A DNA stretch of 64,000 nucleotides from Candidatus Versatilivorator sp. (lineage in GTDB: Bacteria > Acidobacteriota > Terriglobia > Versatilivoradales > Versatilivoraceae), in contig OZ242296.1 in the NCBI GenBank assembly GCA_965207735.1, positions 4,448,001 to 4,512,000 on the forward strand, read 5' to 3'. How positions within the stretch are numbered: the stretch's first letter is position 1; the number at the start of each line of letters is the position of its first letter. This document shows, in pieces, positions 24,034 through 63,343 of the stretch. The position numbers were made by a program, and so were the translations under genes. The notes under the pieces were generated by a model. That model saw only the letters and a list, made by a program, of their open reading frames with translations. It searched no databases and was not told the DNA's origin.

Positions 24034-25147
24034 GGCCCGGCCGTGCGGATCACACAAGAGTGAAACAATCGAAAATCGGCCATCCTTTCGCGACCTTGGC
24101 ATCCCGTCGCGGTTAACCTCAACGCCTTGGTGGCCTTTCGTCGTCCTTCTTGTCCCTTCGTGGATAGCTCCTTTTTCTTTTGTTTCAGGAGAGCCGATCT
24201 CCGGTGCCTCGCGCTTTCGGCAATCTGCTGTCGCCGCCTTCGCGGCTCGACCTGGAGCTACCCCTTTCCATGGGCTCACGCCCACGGCTACCTGCTGCCG
24301 CCGCTCCGCGGCTCGATGGATCGCCCGGGCGTTCGCCCGGGATTTCTTATTGCCAACAAGTGTCGCCCCCGCCCTGTCGTGCGGATCATACGAGAGCAAA
24401 ACAATCAGAAATCGATCATCCCTTCGCAACCTTGGTACCCCGTCGCGGTTAACCTCAGCGCCTTAGTGCCCCTTCGTGGTCCTTCGTGGATCACTCTTTT
24501 TCTTTTGTCTTTTGTCGGTTGTTTCAGGCAAGTTCCGCCCCCGCCCTGCCGTGCGGATCATTCGAGAGTGAAACAATCAGAAATCGACAATCCTTTCGCG
24601 AACTTGGTATCCCGTCGCGGTTAACCTCAGCGCCTTCGTGTCCCTTCGTGGTCCTTCGTGCCCCTTCGTGGATAAGTCTTTTTCTTTGTCTTTTGTCGGT
24701 TGTTTCAGGCAAGCGAGGCCCCCGCCCCCCACGACGGGGCGGATCATTCGAAGGTGAAGAAACAGGGTTGTTTCAGACAAGCCGGGCCCCCGCTTTGCCG
24801 TGCGGATCATACATAGAGTGAAACAATTGGAAATCGACCATCCCTTCGCGACCTTGATACCCCGTCGCGGTCAACCTCAGCGCCTTCGTGCCCCTTCGTC
24901 GTTCTTCGTGCCCCTTCGTGGATAAGTTTTTTGTCTTTTGTCTTTTTTCGGTTGTTTCAGACAAGCCGGACCCCCGCCCTGTCGCGCGGATCATACGAGA
25001 ATGAAACAATCAGAAATCGACAATCCCTTCGCGAACTTGGCACCCCGTCGCGGTTAACCTCAGCGCCTTAGTGCCCCTTCGTGGTCCTTCGTGCCCCTTC
25101 GTGGATAAGTCTTTTTCTTTTGTCTCTTGTCGTTTGTTTCAGGCAAG
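24034..25147 (+). repeat. Tandem array of six non-autonomous IS110-ended elements (24034-24193, 24361-24532, 24533-24713, 24714-24781 empty, 24782-24965, 24966-25147)
   Basis: Each begins ..CCCCGCCC..CGGATCA..GAGTGAAAC (with variants) and ends TGTTTCAG(G/A)CAAG (first unit ends CAGGAGAG); the array abuts the IS110 element. Confidence 0.9.
24229..24314. repeat. REP-like repeat family C
   Basis: CCATGGGCT.ACGCCCACGGCTACCTGCTGCCG motif; copies at ~35257-35304, 50044-50240, 57174-57259. Confidence 0.8.
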
Positions 25148-49479: not shown

Positions 49480-50240
49480 GCGCCGCGTTTGCCCCCCTCC
49501 GGATCGACTGCGGGCTTCGCCTTTTGGTAGTCACTCTCGGGGCGCCGAGTATGCCCCCCTCCGGATCGACCGCGGGCTGCGCCCTTGTCTCTCCGACTCC
49601 CCCTCAAGGGGGGAGTGATACTTGAGGCTTGCATCAGGCGCCTTGCCCGATTCCTGGGCATGATGTAAACCATGTTCCCGGTCTACCGCATAAACTCCGT
49701 TCCCTCTTCATAACACGGTATCACTCCCCCCTTGAGGGGGAGTCGCAGAAGCCGAGCCGGATGGCGAAGGCTGATGCGGTGGGGGGCAGACGCCGGGCCA
49801 GCTATGGGCGCGGGGTTGTAGCCCCGGCGGGAAGTCCAAGGTCGTGGTAGCCCCCGCAGCCGCGACGCGGCGAATCAATAGCGTCCTTCGGGAACGCACG
49901 GCCCCATCGAAAAACCCACCAACCCCACCCCTCCCACCGAACAAAACCCCTGCGAGCCGGGTGCAGGGACAGGGACAATTGCGGCGCTTGAGAAGATGAA
50001 TTTTTCCAATAGAACGCCCCGGGCGCCAGCCCGGAGATCCCCTCGAGCGGCGAAGCCGCGGCAGCAGGTAGCCGTGGGCGTAAGCCCATGGATTGCGTCG
50101 CGTAAGAGTCGAGCCGCGTAGGCGGCGGCAGCAAATGCCGGTGAGCCCACGTGAAGCGCAGGGCAACGCATTGACCTTTCTCACCTGCAAAAACGCATCT
50201 TGAGCCGGCTTCCCTGAGAGCCGCGTAGGCGGCGCCAGCA
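49480..50240. repeat. Cluster of repeat families B and C
   Basis: Family B composite 49480-49800, then family C palindromes GAGCCGCGTAGGCGGCG. Confidence 0.8.
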
Positions 50241-57027: not shown

Positions 57028-57388
57028 ACAAGCCCTGGCGCAGCCACACCGATCTGCCCCACGTCGATCAACCGGGAACGGCGCCGCTCCCCGTTTCCTG
57101 CGTAAAGGATGTATGGGATCTGAACCCACCGGCAGCTGCAGTCTTGAGACAAACGTCAGCCTGGGGTTCGAGTGGAGCCGCGAAGCGGCGGCAGCAGGTA
57201 GCCGTGGGCGTAAGCCCATGGGAAATTGGGCATAAGTGTTGAGCCGCGTAGGCGGCGACTACATCAAAAAACTTGTAACTGCTCATTATAATAGACTTAT
57301 GGTGGATTGTCCTGTTGTAATCCCCTCATTGTATCCCTCTATTTGAACGGGAATCCACTGGACTGTTCGGGACGTTGGTGGACAGGTC

Positions 57389-57664
57389 TTACGATGTTGC
57401 AACCCCCGAGACTCTGCCTCCGAGACCGTCGAGCCGGGTGGTAGGCTGCCCTTGGGTTCGGATCGGAGATATCGGGTTGTGAGCATCCTCCAGCCTTGCC
57501 CTTCTCGGCCTCTGGCCATCTGTGGTCTTCTGTTCTTCGAGGGCTTCATAGACGAGGGCGCGCAGCCAGGAGCCGACGTTGAGGTGCCGCTGGATGACGA
57601 GGCACTGGAAACCTTGACGGGTTTCGGGAGAGACATGGATATGAAGCGGTACACGGTGCAACAT
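57389..57664 (-). CDS. Putative ribbon-helix-helix (CopG/MobC-like) protein, 91 aa
   Basis: MLHRVPLHIHVSPETRQGFQCLVIQRHLNVGSWLRALVYEALEE fits the strand-helix-helix pattern; internal Met of ORF 57389..57946. Confidence 0.55.
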   Translation of the reverse strand: MLHRVPLHIHVSPETRQGFQCLVIQRHLNVGSWLRALVYEALEEQKTTDGQRPRRARLEDAHNPISPIRTQGQPTTRLDGLGGRVSGVATS

Positions 57665-57787
57665 AGAGACACACAACAACACATGGAGCGACAAGCAGGT
57701 TACAACGCTACACAACGCTACATGGAGACACACGCAGCCACCGTGAGCGCGAAAAAGTGCTCGATGGCCTTCCCGCCAGGGATCACT

Positions 57788-57877
57788 GTGGAGGGAGCGA
57801 CCCCGGAAAGGGGAGGGGAGGTGGTGGATTTTGGCGTGCACCACCTCCCCTCCCCTTTCCGGGGTCGCTCCCTCCAC
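57788..57877. repeat. Perfect 39-bp inverted repeat with 12-nt loop
   Basis: 57788-57826 is the reverse complement of 57839-57877. Confidence 0.95.
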
Positions 57878-58020: not shown

Positions 58021-58176
58021 CCACGACGGCGAGGACTTCGCCCTCTGAGAGAGGAGCGTTGGGGTTGTCAAAAGCGTGAGCCACTTGGTGCGCCACCTAC
58101 GTGAGCCACCCCCCTTTTGTAAGGTGGTCACCCATACGACGCCACGTCCTTGACCCCCGGAGGCGGAAATCGTCGA
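58021..58176 (+). other. Conserved structured non-coding element, copy A
   Basis: CCAC.A.GGCGAG..CGCCCTCTG.GAGA ... TGACCCCC.G.GGCGGAAAT shared with copies B and C. Confidence 0.75.
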
Positions 58177-58760
58177 TCATGTCGCGGCCGTTGGAGGCCG
58201 GGTCTTCCTGCTCCCATTGGTCGATCTTCTCCATGACGACACCGCGGCCGCCATGGCGTTCGACCGTGTCCTGACCCCTGAATCCGCGAGCTTTGCGGGG
58301 GGCTGGCTGGACTTTCTCACTCCCTGGCATAGCAGGACACCCCGGAACGCCTCCTGGACCGATTTCCGTCTCAGGGACCGCAGGGACCGCCGCCGGTGGG
58401 GAAATCGGATTGGCCGGCTCGCTCAGCGGTCCCGGGGTCGCCATGCGGAGAGAGCGACCTCCGCGCGGGGGCAAAGGGTGTCCGGACCCCTGGCCACCTT
58501 TGCCCTCCTCCGTGGCGCGCGAGCGCCGAAAAAGGAAGCTCTCACCGCCGGCACCCGTCTCGTGTGGCGCGCCGACGCGCCGGGCGAGGCGGGGACAGCG
58601 AGGCCGGTGCCGCACCGCGTCGTGCCGGGGAGCCAGCCTACCCAATGTAGTACATTGGGGCTGGCGAGGGGCTCCCACCCCTTCGAACCCGCGACCGGGG
58701 GGAAGTTCTCCCCTGGCCCCCCATCACGGGGGCGACGCGCCGTATCGGGGAAGCTTTCGA

Positions 58761-58904
58761 CCACAATGGCGAGGGCTCCGCCCTCTGGGAGAAAGGTGTT
58801 GTGGTTGTCAAAAGCATGTCACCCTTCGATGTCACCCCCCCCTTCCAAAAGGGTGACAGTTATACGACGCCATATCCTTGACCCCCGGGGGCGGAAATGA
58901 TCGA
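58761..58904 (+). other. Conserved structured non-coding element, copy B
   Basis: Aligns by eye with copy A over its whole length. Confidence 0.75.
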
Positions 58905-59170
58905 CCCATCCCGCGTCGGCCGAAGCCGTTGTCGCGTTCGCCGGTGATCTCATCACTTCCCCCTGTGTGGCAGTGAGTTGAGATACTATAAGATAGAAGG
59001 GCGTAGACCTCTGAAATCCTAGGTGCTACAAGTTGCCAGACGCTGAGAACGCCTAGCCCGAAGTTCCCCCCATTTTACACCCGAAAAATCGCCTTAAGCC
59101 ATTTGTTTTCTTAGGGAAGAGGATTGAGGTGTGTGGATTTGTGTTCCCATGTATATGATTAGTATTTAGA

Positions 59171-59198
59171 TTGACATGATAGTTCTATGTGATAGTAT
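59171..59198 (+). promoter_or_regulatory. Transposase sigma70 promoter
   Basis: TTGACA-16 nt-TAGTAT, ending 6 nt before the ATG. Confidence 0.65.
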
Positions 59199-59204
59199 AG
59201 TCCC

Positions 59205-60926
59205 ATGTACGTCGAAACCGTCCCCAACCGCAACTCTCCCCCTGCCATCCTCCTGCGCGAAGGCCGCCGTGAGGGTAAAAAGGTCCATAAACGCACCTTG
59301 GCCAACCTCTCCCATTGGCCCAAGGACAAGATCGAGCGCCTCCGGCGCGTGCTCAAGAACGAACCCCTGGTCCATCCCGACCAACTCTTCGCCATCGAAC
59401 GCTCCCTGCCTCATGGCCACGTCGAGTTGCTGCTGGAAGTGGTGCGGCAGCTGAAGCTGCCGGCGCTGATCGATTCCCGACCCTCTCCCCAACGGGACCG
59501 GGTCTTGGCCATGATCCTGCAGCGTCTGCTCCATCCGGCCTCCAAGCTGGCCACCACCCGTCTTTGGCACACCACCACGTTGGGTGAGGAACTGTCCCTT
59601 GAGGACACCGACGAGGACGATCTCTATGAGGCCATGGACTGGTTGCTGGAGCGTCAGGACCGGATTGAGCGCAAGCTGGCCAAGCGGCACCTGGCGGAAG
59701 GGGATGCGGTGCTCTATGACGTCAGCAGCAGTTACTACGAAGGCCAGACCTGCTCGCTGATGCAGTTCGGCCACAACCGGGACGGCAGGCGGGACCGGCC
59801 CATGGTGGTCTACGGGGTGCTGGCCGACCAGATGGGGCGGCCGCTGTCGGTGCAGGCCTATGCCGGCAACACGGGGGATCCGACCACGGTGGGGGATCAG
59901 GTGGAGAAGGTGCGGGGTCGGTTTGGTCTGGAGCGGGTGGTGCTGGTGGGGGACCGCGGGCTGCTGACCGAGACGCAGATCAGCCATCTGAAGCGTCATC
60001 CGGGAGTGGGGTGGGTCTCAGCCCTGCGCCACCACCAGATACGCCGTCTGGTGGAGAGCGAGGCGGTTCAGCTCTCCCTGTTCGACGAGCGTCATCTGGC
60101 CGAAGTCCGCAGCCCGGACTATCCGGGCGAGAGGCTCATCGTCTGCCACAACCCGCTGCTGGCCGAGCATCGGCGGCGGAAGCGCGAGGCTTTGCTGACA
60201 GCCACCGAGGAGGCGCTGGCCGGAATCGCCCGCCAGGTGGCCAGACGGACCCGCACGCCCTTGTCGGCGACCGAGATCGCCGAGAAAGTCGGCCGGGTCA
60301 AGAACCGCTTCCAGGTGGCCAAACACTTCCGGACCCAGATCGCAGACGGGTCCTTCCACTATGAACGGCGCACCGACGCCATCATCCGGGAGGCGCAACT
60401 GGACGGGTTCTACATGCTGAGGACCAGCGAGCCAGCCGATCGCCTGCCAACAGCCGCGGTGGTGCGCCGCTACAAGGACCTGACGCGGGTGGAGCGGGCC
60501 TTCCGCTCCCTCAAGACCGTCGACCTGCACATCCGTCCCATCCGTCATCGGGTGGAGAACCGGGTGCGGGCTCATCTGTTCCTGTGCCTGCTGGCCTATT
60601 ACGTCCAGTGGCATCTGCGGCTGGCCCTGGCTCCGTTGCTGTTCGATGACGAGGAACTGGAAGCGGAACGGGCACGGCGAGACCCGGTGCTGGCGGCCCA
60701 GCCGTCGGACTCCGCCAAACGGAAGAAGAACAAACGCCTCAGCCAGGACGGCTTGCCGCTGCAGAGCCTGGAGACGCTGATGGCGCAGATGGCGACGCGG
60801 GCCCGCCACCAGTGCCGATTGCCCTCCGAACCCGATGGTCCGCGAGTCCAGCGATTGACCGAGCCGACCCCGCTACAGCAACGGGCCTTCGAGCTCATCA
60901 GGATGTTCCCAGGCAAGACAACCTGA
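59205..60926 (+). CDS. IS1634-family DDE transposase
   Basis: VPNRNSPPAILLRE, LYDVSSSYYEG, GNTGD, VGDRGL, YKDLTRVERAFRSLK. Confidence 0.93.
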   Translation: MYVETVPNRNSPPAILLREGRREGKKVHKRTLANLSHWPKDKIERLRRVLKNEPLVHPDQLFAIERSLPHGHVELLLEVVRQLKLPALIDSRPSPQRDRVLAMILQRLLHPASKLATTRLWHTTTLGEELSLEDTDEDDLYEAMDWLLERQDRIERKLAKRHLAEGDAVLYDVSSSYYEGQTCSLMQFGHNRDGRRDRPMVVYGVLADQMGRPLSVQAYAGNTGDPTTVGDQVEKVRGRFGLERVVLVGDRGLLTETQISHLKRHPGVGWVSALRHHQIRRLVESEAVQLSLFDERHLAEVRSPDYPGERLIVCHNPLLAEHRRRKREALLTATEEALAGIARQVARRTRTPLSATEIAEKVGRVKNRFQVAKHFRTQIADGSFHYERRTDAIIREAQLDGFYMLRTSEPADRLPTAAVVRRYKDLTRVERAFRSLKTVDLHIRPIRHRVENRVRAHLFLCLLAYYVQWHLRLALAPLLFDDEELEAERARRDPVLAAQPSDSAKRKKNKRLSQDGLPLQSLETLMAQMATRARHQCRLPSEPDGPRVQRLTEPTPLQQRAFELIRMFPGKTT

Positions 60927-61181
60927 GATTCCTGATTGATGATTGAAGGTAAAGGAGTTATCTTGTCGGTGGGTCAGGAACTTCGGCCTAGCACAGGGCA
61001 ACTGTGCGCGTTATTTTCGCGCTTGTTCGGATGAAAACCCCGGATGGCCCGTAACGAGCGAGGGCTGCGGCATCGAAGAGATCTAGAATCGCCAAGGTAT
61101 CGTAATGCGGTCATTGGGGCACGCCGGAGGCCGGGAAATCTCAGCCTGGCCGACAAATCTCAAGGATTTGGGGAGAGCCTG

Positions 61182-61748
61182 ATGGATATTAGCAAGACGA
61201 TATTAGATGCGATAACGCATGCGTTGGAATCTGAGGAACTGCGGCTCAAACCACGTTCGGAGCGACCGGGGGAACCGCTGTGGCCTTGGACCGTGCTGGG
61301 GTACCGTGAGGACTGGATTCGCTATCTCTTGGTCCGAGAGATCTCTGGCCGGATTCCTGACCGAGAGTTAAGGATAGAAACTGAAGTTGGCGGATTGTCT
61401 CAAGTGGATCTGTCAATTCACGGTCTTTTTTCTGTGGAACTGAAAGGACCATATGAGGTCAAAGAGAACTTTGACCAAGGCCTCTACAACAAAATTCTAG
61501 AAGATTTTGAGAAGCAACGATGCCGAGCGAATAAGAAACCAAACCTCAAACACTTCGTCCTCCTGATCCTGCATGCCCCCAAGGCGTGCTTCTATTCCGG
61601 GTTCCTTCAGGGATGGCTTACGGAACTGGAAACGGAAGTTCGGAATAAAAATCACGGCATCTGCATCGAGGTGGTGCCGTCCAAGCCGCTCGTCCTCAAC
61701 GGCAACGAGCCCTGGCTGATGGAGTGTTGCCTCTACAGAGTTTCCTAG
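61182..61748 (+). CDS. Hypothetical protein with PD-(D/E)xK-like motif
   Basis: E..IETE..VDLSI..SVELK; GGAGAG RBS; visibly AT-richer than the core genes. Confidence 0.6.
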   Translation: MDISKTILDAITHALESEELRLKPRSERPGEPLWPWTVLGYREDWIRYLLVREISGRIPDRELRIETEVGGLSQVDLSIHGLFSVELKGPYEVKENFDQGLYNKILEDFEKQRCRANKKPNLKHFVLLILHAPKACFYSGFLQGWLTELETEVRNKNHGICIEVVPSKPLVLNGNEPWLMECCLYRVS

Positions 61749-61914
61749 AGAGTAGTTCACACTTCCGATAACGTCGAGTATGTCAACTGTCGAGGGCAAC
61801 GTGTAGGGGCTGATGGAAACCATGGTCAGCGAAGCCATGGACGCCCTGATTGACGATGGTCGCTATGAAGCTAGGGTTGCCAAGAGGACTTGTCCGCGAA
61901 TGAGGTAACTACCA

Positions 61915-63051
61915 ATGCCGGTTCATCACCGACATATATGGATGCGGTTCTTGTGCCTGCTCTTGATCCTGCTAGCCCAAGCCTGCACGTCACAGACCCC
62001 CACGCGGCAAACCGAGCTCGGCCGCTACGCTGCATCCGTGGGGCTAACCGAAAAAGACCTAGTGGACGCGACGATAGCGCTAGCCAACGCGGGACTTCCC
62101 GAATCTCAACACGCCCTTGGCGTCATGTTCTATCAAGGCGATAACGGATTGGCGCAGAACTACGTGATGGCAGCCAAGTGGTTCCGGGAGGCCGCCTTTC
62201 AAGGATTCGCCCACTCTCAACTCGCCCTTGCCGGTATCTACACCCGAGGTCACGGCGTAACGACTGATCTTGTCGAAGCCTGCGCGTGGACCATTCTTGG
62301 CGCCGGTGCACTGCCAGGAGACAGTGAGGTTCAAACCCAAATGGCCAAAGTGACAAGACACGCGCCCCCGCATATACTCGCCGCCGGGCAGGAACGCGCT
62401 GTCGAGCTTCTCCAGCAGATCGAGGGCCGAAAGAAGCGCCAGAGGCAGGCGGCTCCAACCAGGCCTCCTTCCGATTCCCTCCAAGAGCTTCAAGAAACGA
62501 CCCGTCAGGGATCGCCCACGGTAGCCAAGGGGCACGGCCAGATGTACGCCACAGACCAGGGAGTGCCCCGGGACCTCATCAAGGCCGCCACCAGCCACCC
62601 GCCCAAACTCTCCCAAGCCACACCGAAGTTTCACGAACGCCCGCAGGCGGTCCCAGCGCAGTCGCCAGAACTGGCTTGGCAAAAACACAACGAATTGGAG
62701 GAGGCATTGACGGAGAGCGGAACGACCACAACGGTGCCAGAACCGACCGACAAGTGTGCTTTGCCTGGGGAGGTAATTTCACCCACAGTGCTGTCCCGAA
62801 TCGAACCAGTCTACTCTGAAGCGGCCCGTAAAGCTAACCTTGAAGGAACGGTCGAGCTTTCCGCCATTGTCCGTAAGGACGGATCTATTGAATCCGTGAA
62901 GGTTTTGCGCGGGCTAGGCCTCGGATTAGATGGGAGCGCCATTAAGGCTCTAAAGAGTTGGCGGTTTCGTCCTGGCATGAAAGACGGAAGACCCGTCGAT
63001 TTACGCGTGAAAATCGAGGTTAAATTTAGTATGCGGCCGGAGCAGGACTAA
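61915..63051 (+). CDS. Sel1-repeat / TonB C-terminal fusion, probable lipoprotein
   Basis: LAQAC lipobox, SQHALGVMFYQG and AAKWFREAA Sel1 repeats, PVYSEAARKANLEGTV..WRFRPG TonB_C. Start may be MRFL. Confidence 0.85.
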   Translation: MPVHHRHIWMRFLCLLLILLAQACTSQTPTRQTELGRYAASVGLTEKDLVDATIALANAGLPESQHALGVMFYQGDNGLAQNYVMAAKWFREAAFQGFAHSQLALAGIYTRGHGVTTDLVEACAWTILGAGALPGDSEVQTQMAKVTRHAPPHILAAGQERAVELLQQIEGRKKRQRQAAPTRPPSDSLQELQETTRQGSPTVAKGHGQMYATDQGVPRDLIKAATSHPPKLSQATPKFHERPQAVPAQSPELAWQKHNELEEALTESGTTTTVPEPTDKCALPGEVISPTVLSRIEPVYSEAARKANLEGTVELSAIVRKDGSIESVKVLRGLGLGLDGSAIKALKSWRFRPGMKDGRPVDLRVKIEVKFSMRPEQD

Positions 63052-63343
63052 TGGACAATTTCCGCCTCTGGGGGTCACGCCGATGCCGTTAGATGGGCCG
63101 CCACCTTCCCGACGGGGGGGTGGCGGTCTAACCTGGCGGCGATCCTGCTACGCACAACGCCTTTCTCTCAGAGGGCGAAGTTCTCGCCGTTGTGGTGGAG
63201 GACTTCCCTGAAACGCTGTACCAGACGCGGGACGACACGGATTTCCCGCGTCCGTTGCGGAAAGGCGAAGCGAGGCTGCGCCTTGCGCGTCCCCCCCTTG
63301 CGGGGAGGTCGCTCCCTCCACATTGATCCCCTGCGGGAAGGCC
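63052..63343 (-). other. Conserved structured non-coding element, copy C (inverted), with extended homology to 57766-58176
   Basis: Reverse complement reads GGCCTTCCCGC..GATCA.TGTGGAGGGAGCGACC ... AATCCGTG ... GGCGAGAACTTCGCCCTCTGAGAGA ... TGACCCCCAGAGGCGGAAAT. Confidence 0.75.

Follow-up and report, generated by a model that had tools for sequence, protein, structure and literature searches.

What is a DNA element that occurs three times within a few kilobases, keeps its flanks and exchanges the central stem on both sides? Such an element, of about 150 bp, is found as copies A, B and C in a stretch of 64,000 nucleotides from Candidatus Versatilivorator sp. (contig OZ242296.1, positions 4,448,001 to 4,512,000), which is called the window here. 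A first-pass annotation left it open whether the element is a structured RNA switch or a single-stranded DNA signal similar to an origin of transfer (oriT) with variable specificity. The positions of the copies, their central stems and the doubled 5' arms were all verified in the sequence (Table 1). The element is indeed unrecognised in Rfam, where no family reaches its gathering score on it. Gene context, the fold of an adjacent protein and the covariation of DNA motif and protein helix favour the oriT-like signal. We consider it probable that the element is part of a family of MOBC-like oriT units whose repeats encode specificity and which are spread by integrases with dispersed repeats as their targets.

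The 150-bp element forms the 3' third of a unit of about 450-520 bp that includes a long 5' hairpin. In an all-against-all comparison, the shared unit spans approximately -265 to +260, with the first base of the 150-bp core as reference. The 3' part of the element (about 60 nt) is antisense to the C-terminus of a gene coding for 315-338 aa. A hidden Markov model (HMM) built from the three copies detects 60 copies at E<1e-5 in the 5.26-Mb genome, which is far beyond chance. The DNA of the unit matches all 13 same-genus genomes and none of the 17 genomes from the rest of the family; of 30 others, 5 match weakly. Two loci were found in a metagenome scan, and no match was obtained for unit or protein with blastn/tblastn against 72,556 plasmids.

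The copy-specific motif of the core recurs, usually twice, at the apex of the long hairpin, about 200 bp upstream. Apex and core have a 7-mer in common in 67 of 86 copies, compared with 38.9 (maximum 52) in 2000 shuffles (4 of 90 unique copies were dropped for missing segments; kinship was not corrected for). This is covariation by identity, which is what protein-binding sites would show. The protein encoded by the 315-338-aa gene covaries as well. By residues 41-55 of this protein, pairs with the same motif can be told apart from pairs with different motifs with an area under the curve (AUC) of 1.0 (0.99 without the 13-member largest group), a value that is optimistic because the motif types were set by eye after the helices had been seen and because the loci are kin. 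Residues 96-300, which are encoded nearer to the motif, reach an AUC of only 0.87. This analysis covers 28 intact close-clade loci among 37 unique ones (8 distant loci and a frameshifted one were left out). Loci with new helices and new motifs nest within the ATGTCACCC group in the tree. Because the repeats change together with the predicted recognition helix, they likely represent a lock-and-key code rather than an RNA switch, as judged from sequence. Seven motif types cover 56 of the 60 genome copies, the commonest being represented by 31 copies, including copy A. Intact genes are present for two types only; four of them match the commonest type. Two loci with an intact type IV secretion system (T4SS), L022:980-1640 and L024, carry two tandem repeat arrays. 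In L022, the new-type array matches the apex while the older-type array stays at the gene end, possibly a snapshot of a switch in specificity.

The hairpin has a conserved core, GA(G/A)CGAC...GTCG(C/T)TC, with outer arms that are complementary but variable. It is found 10-604 nt after the stop codon of the gene in 26 of 37 distant loci, and upstream of the gene in none of these 37. In the near family, two-sided changes occupy 42 cells of the core stem, of which 36 belong to two columns (probably inherited events). The commonest 3' arm is GGGGG/GTCGCT (10 of 26). A similar sequence is known from plasmid CloDF13, for which the nick site (nic) is given as GGGTG/GTCGGG (PMC5935869, citing Nunez and de la Cruz 2001). 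In the CloDF13 record, an inverted repeat has nic in its 3' arm; the loop is about 60 nt, and the partner of the arm is 67 nt upstream. The two systems have in common a G-rich sequence with GTCG in this 3' arm and, on the 5' side, a gene that points away, which in CloDF13 is a Walker-A mobilisation gene, probably that of the coupling protein. By this analogy, we predict nicking at GGGG/GTCGC in the 3' arm of the hairpin; for copy A, the predicted position is between 57863 and 57864. The systems differ in that CloDF13 is a plasmid, not an integrative element, and has its relaxase gene on the opposite side. An HMM search against the CloDF13 record gave no protein match; the mob frames of this record look broken.

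The structure model of the protein comprises a winged helix-turn-helix (wHTH) at residues 1-95, followed by an alpha/beta domain. The wHTH structurally matches MarR/ArsR proteins (Z 7-8), and the top matches of the C-terminal domain are PD-(D/E)XK nucleases (SdaI, Z 7.3, rmsd 4.2 over 130 aligned residues; NucS, Z 7.2). The second Foldseek hit in BFVD is gp146 of phage G (probability 0.99, E 0.016), a member of PF13814 (Replic_Relax), which is described as the MobC relaxase domain in the accessible part of PMC5357655. A profile-profile comparison (hhalign) of 43 family members with 15 members of PF13814 gave 72% and an E-value of 3.5e-5 over 198 collinear columns. On this basis, the protein is MOBC-like by architecture, but is not filed as a member of PF13814/MOBC. 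Foldseek against pdb gave nothing at E<=0.001, and a viral search with the C-terminal domain gave nothing significant. In the ESM Atlas, only unnamed Acidobacteriota clusters were found, with ribbon-helix-helix (RHH) families merely as leads. The protein family is present in 30 of 301 genomes sampled across the phylum and also in Gemmatimonadota records; in named records, the closest genes are from Ca. Versatilivorator and from metagenome-assembled genomes of other Acidobacteriota. Some homologues (among P0149, P0157 and P0180; L099, L101, L047 and L052) are fused behind ArdC-type domains, while others are in one frame with upstream T4SS sequence.

Two neighbours recur around the unit: a P4-type tyrosine integrase and the opposite-strand 315-338-aa gene, the last codons of which overlap the element. 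Integrase sequence is found within 3 kb of 48 of the 60 copies, compared with 6.4% of random positions. A remnant of the gene abuts 43 of 60 copies, and the whole gene is kept in 5. The hairpin core is kept in 44 copies, and coupling-protein sequence is found within 600 bp of 6. One copy is part of a full element, which codes for an integrase, AlpA, a primase-helicase, virB3/4/9/10/6/8, the 315-aa protein, the coupling protein, virB11, a RepB primase and ArdC. In this element, the unit is located between the 315-aa gene, the 3' end of which it overlaps, and the coupling-protein gene. Small elements have the order integrase, gene, unit. In all 29 unique close-clade loci, the unit is directly 3' of the full-length gene; the coupling protein comes next in 8, integrase sequence precedes the gene in 19, and neither is seen in 2. 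Linkage to a VirD4-type coupling protein and a T4SS extends to distant homologues. In several distant loci, a small RHH-like gene is located between hairpin and coupling protein (one of nine has a sub-threshold match to RHH_1), as would be expected for relaxosome helpers. In L095:4124-14993 (G000:C1:1865123-1875992), the T4SS element is followed by a defence-like cluster (SNF2 helicase, PHP/SMC-like ATPase and DUF1156 methylase).

The unit has features of an oriT: it is a non-coding site beside the candidate relaxase gene and has an inverted repeat as well as repeats that are presumably bound by a protein. We propose that the wHTH would bind the 7-9-bp motif, which is present in the apex of the hairpin and again some 200 bp downstream in the repeat array, that the MOBC-like nuclease fold would cut one strand at the predicted nic, and that the coupling protein would then receive the cut DNA. 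After loss of the T4SS, and later of the protein gene as well, an element could still be mobilised in trans, given a resident or incoming protein with a matching helix.

Several observations weigh against this proposal, in addition to the optimistic AUC. Apex-core sharing is weak in 11 loci at intermediate distance (5 of 2000 shuffles). The 15 far loci show none (470 of 2000), and in several intact loci the apex type differs from the core type. The 3' arm and the nic of CloDF13 agree in 8 of 11 bases, in a G-rich sequence. None of the family members has a Pfam match to Replic_Relax (0 of 76, 0 of 56 and 0 of 12) or to any other family of relevance, a search of the profile against the single gp146 sequence was negative, the structural Z scores range from 6 to below 8, which is possibly generic, and the Foldseek E-values are not significant. 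The ExD motif is altered to (Y/F)xD, with Tyr or Phe in place of Glu throughout; the Asp of the PD motif does not belong to the common residues of the near clade, although 13 of 18 distant homologues have it. The nuclease may therefore be dead. Four proteins of the conjugative element have no family, so another nickase is possible. Finally, the protein gene precedes the origin, unlike in the MOBC plasmids described in the accessible part of 10.1101/2024.01.30.577996, where the relaxase usually follows the coupling protein.

The degenerate catalytic motif suggests an alternative: the protein may have lost catalysis and bind DNA as a regulator or as an organiser of the relaxosome. The repeats would then be operators through which the downstream coupling-protein genes are controlled, the hairpin would serve in termination or priming, and nicking would be due to another factor or occur at another site. 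All of the sequence from the stop codon of the gene to the ribosome-binding site of the coupling-protein gene is taken up by the unit, and the element encodes a RepB-type primase besides the four proteins without a family; RepB-type primases prime at hairpins. This alternative leaves unexplained, however, that 19 of the 29 close-clade loci consist of integrase, gene and unit, with no adjacent coupling protein to control, and that 39 of the 60 copies retain the hairpin core although the gene is incomplete or missing. Moreover, no known relaxase is available in the element to do the nicking: there is no Pfam relaxase among the 21+2 scanned proteins of the full T4SS element, and no PF13814 match in the whole genome. 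We consider a regulator unlikely.

Iteron-like repeats with specificity groups, next to a hairpin, would also fit a replication origin of excised circles, with the protein as its initiator. The Pfam name Replic_Relax covers replication as well as relaxation, and no additional replication gene is found next to the unit in small elements. In the T4SS cluster, however, the unit has a fixed place between virB8 and the coupling protein, also in distant homologues, and the full element has its own primase-helicase. Replication as the function of the unit is therefore very unlikely in our view; a dual origin role, in transfer and replication, is possible.

Even less credence is given to functionless debris, in which the copies would be what is left of decayed islands (MITE-like or pseudogenes) and gene conversion would have preserved the stems. 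Most copies adjoin broken genes, copies B and C are damaged, and 48 of the 90 unique copies look chimeric. The midpoints of 31 of the 48 breakpoints cluster after the apex (columns 140-239), but breakpoints are easiest to detect there and the homology is longest, which means that the cluster does not localise nic. Partly in accordance with a pseudogene, as considered in the first-pass annotation, the 3' part is coding; codon periodicity is weak there (0.11/0.11/0.14), which indicates mixed constraint. Debris fits many single copies, but not the phylum-wide core, the motif-helix covariation or the common boundaries.

The RNA switch has fared worst. In the 90 unique copies (7 partial genome copies had been excluded), the ACCACAACG/CGTTGTGGT helix has no two-sided changes. 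The long-range pairing is retained as claimed, but mostly by invariance: it has 4 two-sided changes in about 810 cells, and its 3' arm encodes F-R-L-W of the overlapping gene. About 90 of its one-sided changes are G-U compatible, which would fit an RNA, while about 60 cells are broken, and the large one-sided classes are located in codons of that gene. Two further helices, GGCGA/TCGCC and GCGAGGCG, were mis-anchored or misaligned and were not used for these counts. The two alternative pairings of the first-pass annotation arise automatically from direct repeats with one inverted copy. Compared with shuffled sequences, copy B folds better (RNAfold z -2.8), with -1.7 for A and -1.6 for C. Sub-threshold miRNA-like Rfam matches reflect the perfect hairpin. 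One RNA run, analysed as assembled contigs, which give no strand, start or level, contains 0.05 of the words. With hardly any compensatory change in the flanking helices, a motif that covaries by identity with a site some 200 bp away and no Rfam match, we regard a structured RNA switch as the least credible of the alternatives. Four other kinds of element, namely integron attC, retron msr-msd, group II intron and bridge RNA, were compared by eye only and were dropped given the clear gene context.

The integrases offer a probable route for the spread of the unit. The 5' flanks of the integrases end at group-specific cores. The core of group 1 is located inside a repeat of the Acido-Lenti-1 type. 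Its 138 matches comprise 31 intact repeats, 19 repeat left arms with a variant right side, 2 junctions of repeat left and element right, 13 other element-right cases, 7 repeat-right cases and 66 unrelated ones. Acido-Lenti-1, the sole Rfam family at gathering score, is found outside the element (window 57176-57221, 50046-50091 and 24268-24313). The "Acido-Lenti-1 sRNA" of Rfam has the character of a dispersed repeat in this genome, with at least 31 intact copies, and its core probably serves as attachment site of one integrase group. A second group uses the 5' boundary of the unit itself, which corresponds to the ribosome-binding site of the coupling-protein gene; three paired cases are seen, 2.7-2.9 kb apart. 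Insertion at this boundary results in tandem copies of about 830 bp. The cores of a third and a fourth group seem to lie in other dispersed repeats. Targeting of tRNA genes was rejected for most copies. The high number of about 60 copies is probably due to P4-type integrases, the attachment sites of which are dispersed repeats of high abundance or, for one integrase group, the boundary of the oriT. No junction of an excised circle was found among the listed joints of the assembled contigs. Fragments of the integrase 3' end (approximately residues 376-425) flank many copies on both sides, some duplicating the end of an intact upstream integrase (e.g. G000:C1: 1939600-1939794, 3182265-3182471, 3850401-3850520 and 4588951-4589132).

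The features of the window are listed in Table 1. The island likely extends from the attR-like core (57243-57262) to G000:C1:4512893, where an attL-like core is found just past the window. In 10 loci, the attR-like junction is followed by the same arm sequence, always at a distance of 630-960 nt from a copy. Copy A is near-complete and has the motif type that is matched by the four intact resident genes; its third direct repeat is absent from the first-pass annotation. Its hairpin is nearly perfect and lacks the GTG(G/C)CGCACCAGCG side loop present in most copies; it may be a product of conversion or resolution. Copies B and C are damaged relics, and for their motif types the genome has no intact cognate gene. 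In copy C, apex and 3' arm are gone, and with them the predicted nic. Copies B and C do face each other around cargo genes, as had been described, but this is no rule elsewhere: among 22 neighbouring pairs at most 7 kb apart, 11 are direct, 8 facing and 3 divergent. The two copies were ruled out as ends of a composite transposon, given the mixed orientations of the copies and the truncation of both. A Pfam search gave no match for the small ORF next to copy A, nor for the 234-aa cargo ORF (61044-61748), in which a nuclease-like D...ExK motif is seen by eye. The transposase is presumably IS1634-like. GC dips within 61000-62000. Other large dispersed repeat families are found in the window at 1361-26847 and 20660-57058 (GTTTCAG/CTGAAAC-bearing; CCCCTCAAGGGG hairpin).

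Table 1. Features of the island in the window (window positions) and related integrase elements elsewhere in the genome.
Feature	Position	Strand	Remarks
Left island end, attR-like (putative role)	57243..57262	-	integrase core beside the Acido-Lenti-1-type repeat 57176-57221
Small ORF, RHH-like by eye	57389..57664	-	directed away from copy A; recurs beside several copies
Unit 5' boundary	57765..57780	+	antisense of the coupling-protein Shine-Dalgarno sequence; also core of the second integrase group
Copy A, long inverted repeat	57787..57877	+	arms GAGCGACC (57795) and GGTCGCTC (57863); apex motif GTGCACCAC (57836)
Copy A, core	58021..58176	+	direct GTG(A/C)GCCAC x3 (GTGAGCCAC at 58076 and 58101, GTGCGCCAC at 58088), inverted x1 (58123-58131); candidate binding array
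3' remnant of wHTH + PD-(D/E)XK-like gene, residues 239-310	58115..58330	-	overlaps copy A; tblastn 49%, E 1e-12
Degenerate hairpin 5' of copy B	58445..58550	+	5' arm 58452, apex 58479, damaged 3' arm 58537
Copy B, core	58761..58904	+	ATGTCACCC x2 (58816, 58829), inverted GGGTGACA (58851); 3' side truncated
DDE transposase, separate insertion	59205..60926	+	Pfam DDE_Tnp_1, E 1.5e-10; further copies in genome
Cargo: 234-aa ORF and Sel1/TonB_C gene	61044..63051	+	Pfam scan
Copy C	63052..63340	-	CCGCCA repeats 63119-63139, inverted copy 63098; 5' hairpin arm kept (63307)
Second-group integrase elements	G000:C1:636430-639327, 1013913-1016810, 2496225-2498938		

This logic is already known from MOBC-like oriT sites, from integrative mobilisable elements (IMEs) and from islands carrying only an oriT (iOriTs). 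The comparisons that follow refer to the accessible parts of the cited publications. The MOBC protein TraX of pAD1, which carries a wHTH at its N-terminus, binds a set of five direct repeats located 70-120 bp from nic (PMC12857230). The likeness to pAD1 TraX/oriT extends to the predicted restriction-endonuclease-like fold, the putative direct-repeat binding site distant from the cut and the VirD4-type coupling protein (PMC12857230, PMC5714925, PMC8152469). In contrast to TraX, the protein described here has no PF13814 match, the Glu of ExD is replaced and the Asp of PD is lost in the near clade. The repeats are about 200-240 bp from the predicted nic; further copies are present at the apex, and one, which is inverted, is part of the gene end. 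A single genome has at least seven motif types. The hairpin core itself was found near none of 19 genuine PF13814 loci (19 of 21 examined).

IMEs and iOriTs have been described in six nosocomial species (10.64898/2026.01.13.699239). They resemble the elements described here in combining an integrase with an oriT, with or without a relaxase, in having more hitchers than helpers, in tandem accretion and in the location of MOBC oriT sites between the mating pair formation genes and the relaxase; integrase association and att-like cores flanking the island are features found here as well. In that report, however, the hitchers are unrelated to the helpers, whereas here they are decay products of one family, and about 60 copies per genome are located in dispersed repeats. 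Streptococcal IMEs integrate in the oriT of conjugative elements (PMC7563843), which is similar to the integrase group that inserts at the edge of the candidate oriT (three complete cases). The streptococcal IMEs have Rep_trans relaxases, while the site used here is the ribosome-binding site of the coupling-protein gene beside the hairpin. T4SS without a relaxase had been noted previously, conjugation in clades such as Acidobacteria then being without any knowledge, according to the accessible text of PMC3548315. In the literature searched, which excludes supplements and most subscription papers, we found neither the element nor any oriT from Acidobacteria described, and no report of integrases with Acido-Lenti-1 as their target.

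It is tempting to speculate further, although we hold this extended scenario to be doubtful. A relaxase family not catalogued so far, its nuclease site rewired and non-canonical, may read a modular helix-to-motif code, with at least seven orthogonal oriT classes in one chromosome. Integrases landing in REP-like repeats and in each other's origins may have generated a genome-wide gene-shuttling network in sponge-type Acidobacteria. This may explain why T4SS elements of the phylum have been scored as relaxase-less.

If the unit is indeed an oriT, acidobacterial T4SS elements would gain a candidate relaxase and a nic site that have been overlooked by Pfam. The natural series of helices and motifs would make relaxase specificity directly testable. 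Few genetic tools exist for Acidobacteriota, and the series could yield orthogonal transfer tools for this phylum. It would also mean that hitchers consisting of an oriT only reach dozens of copies where integrases target dispersed repeats.

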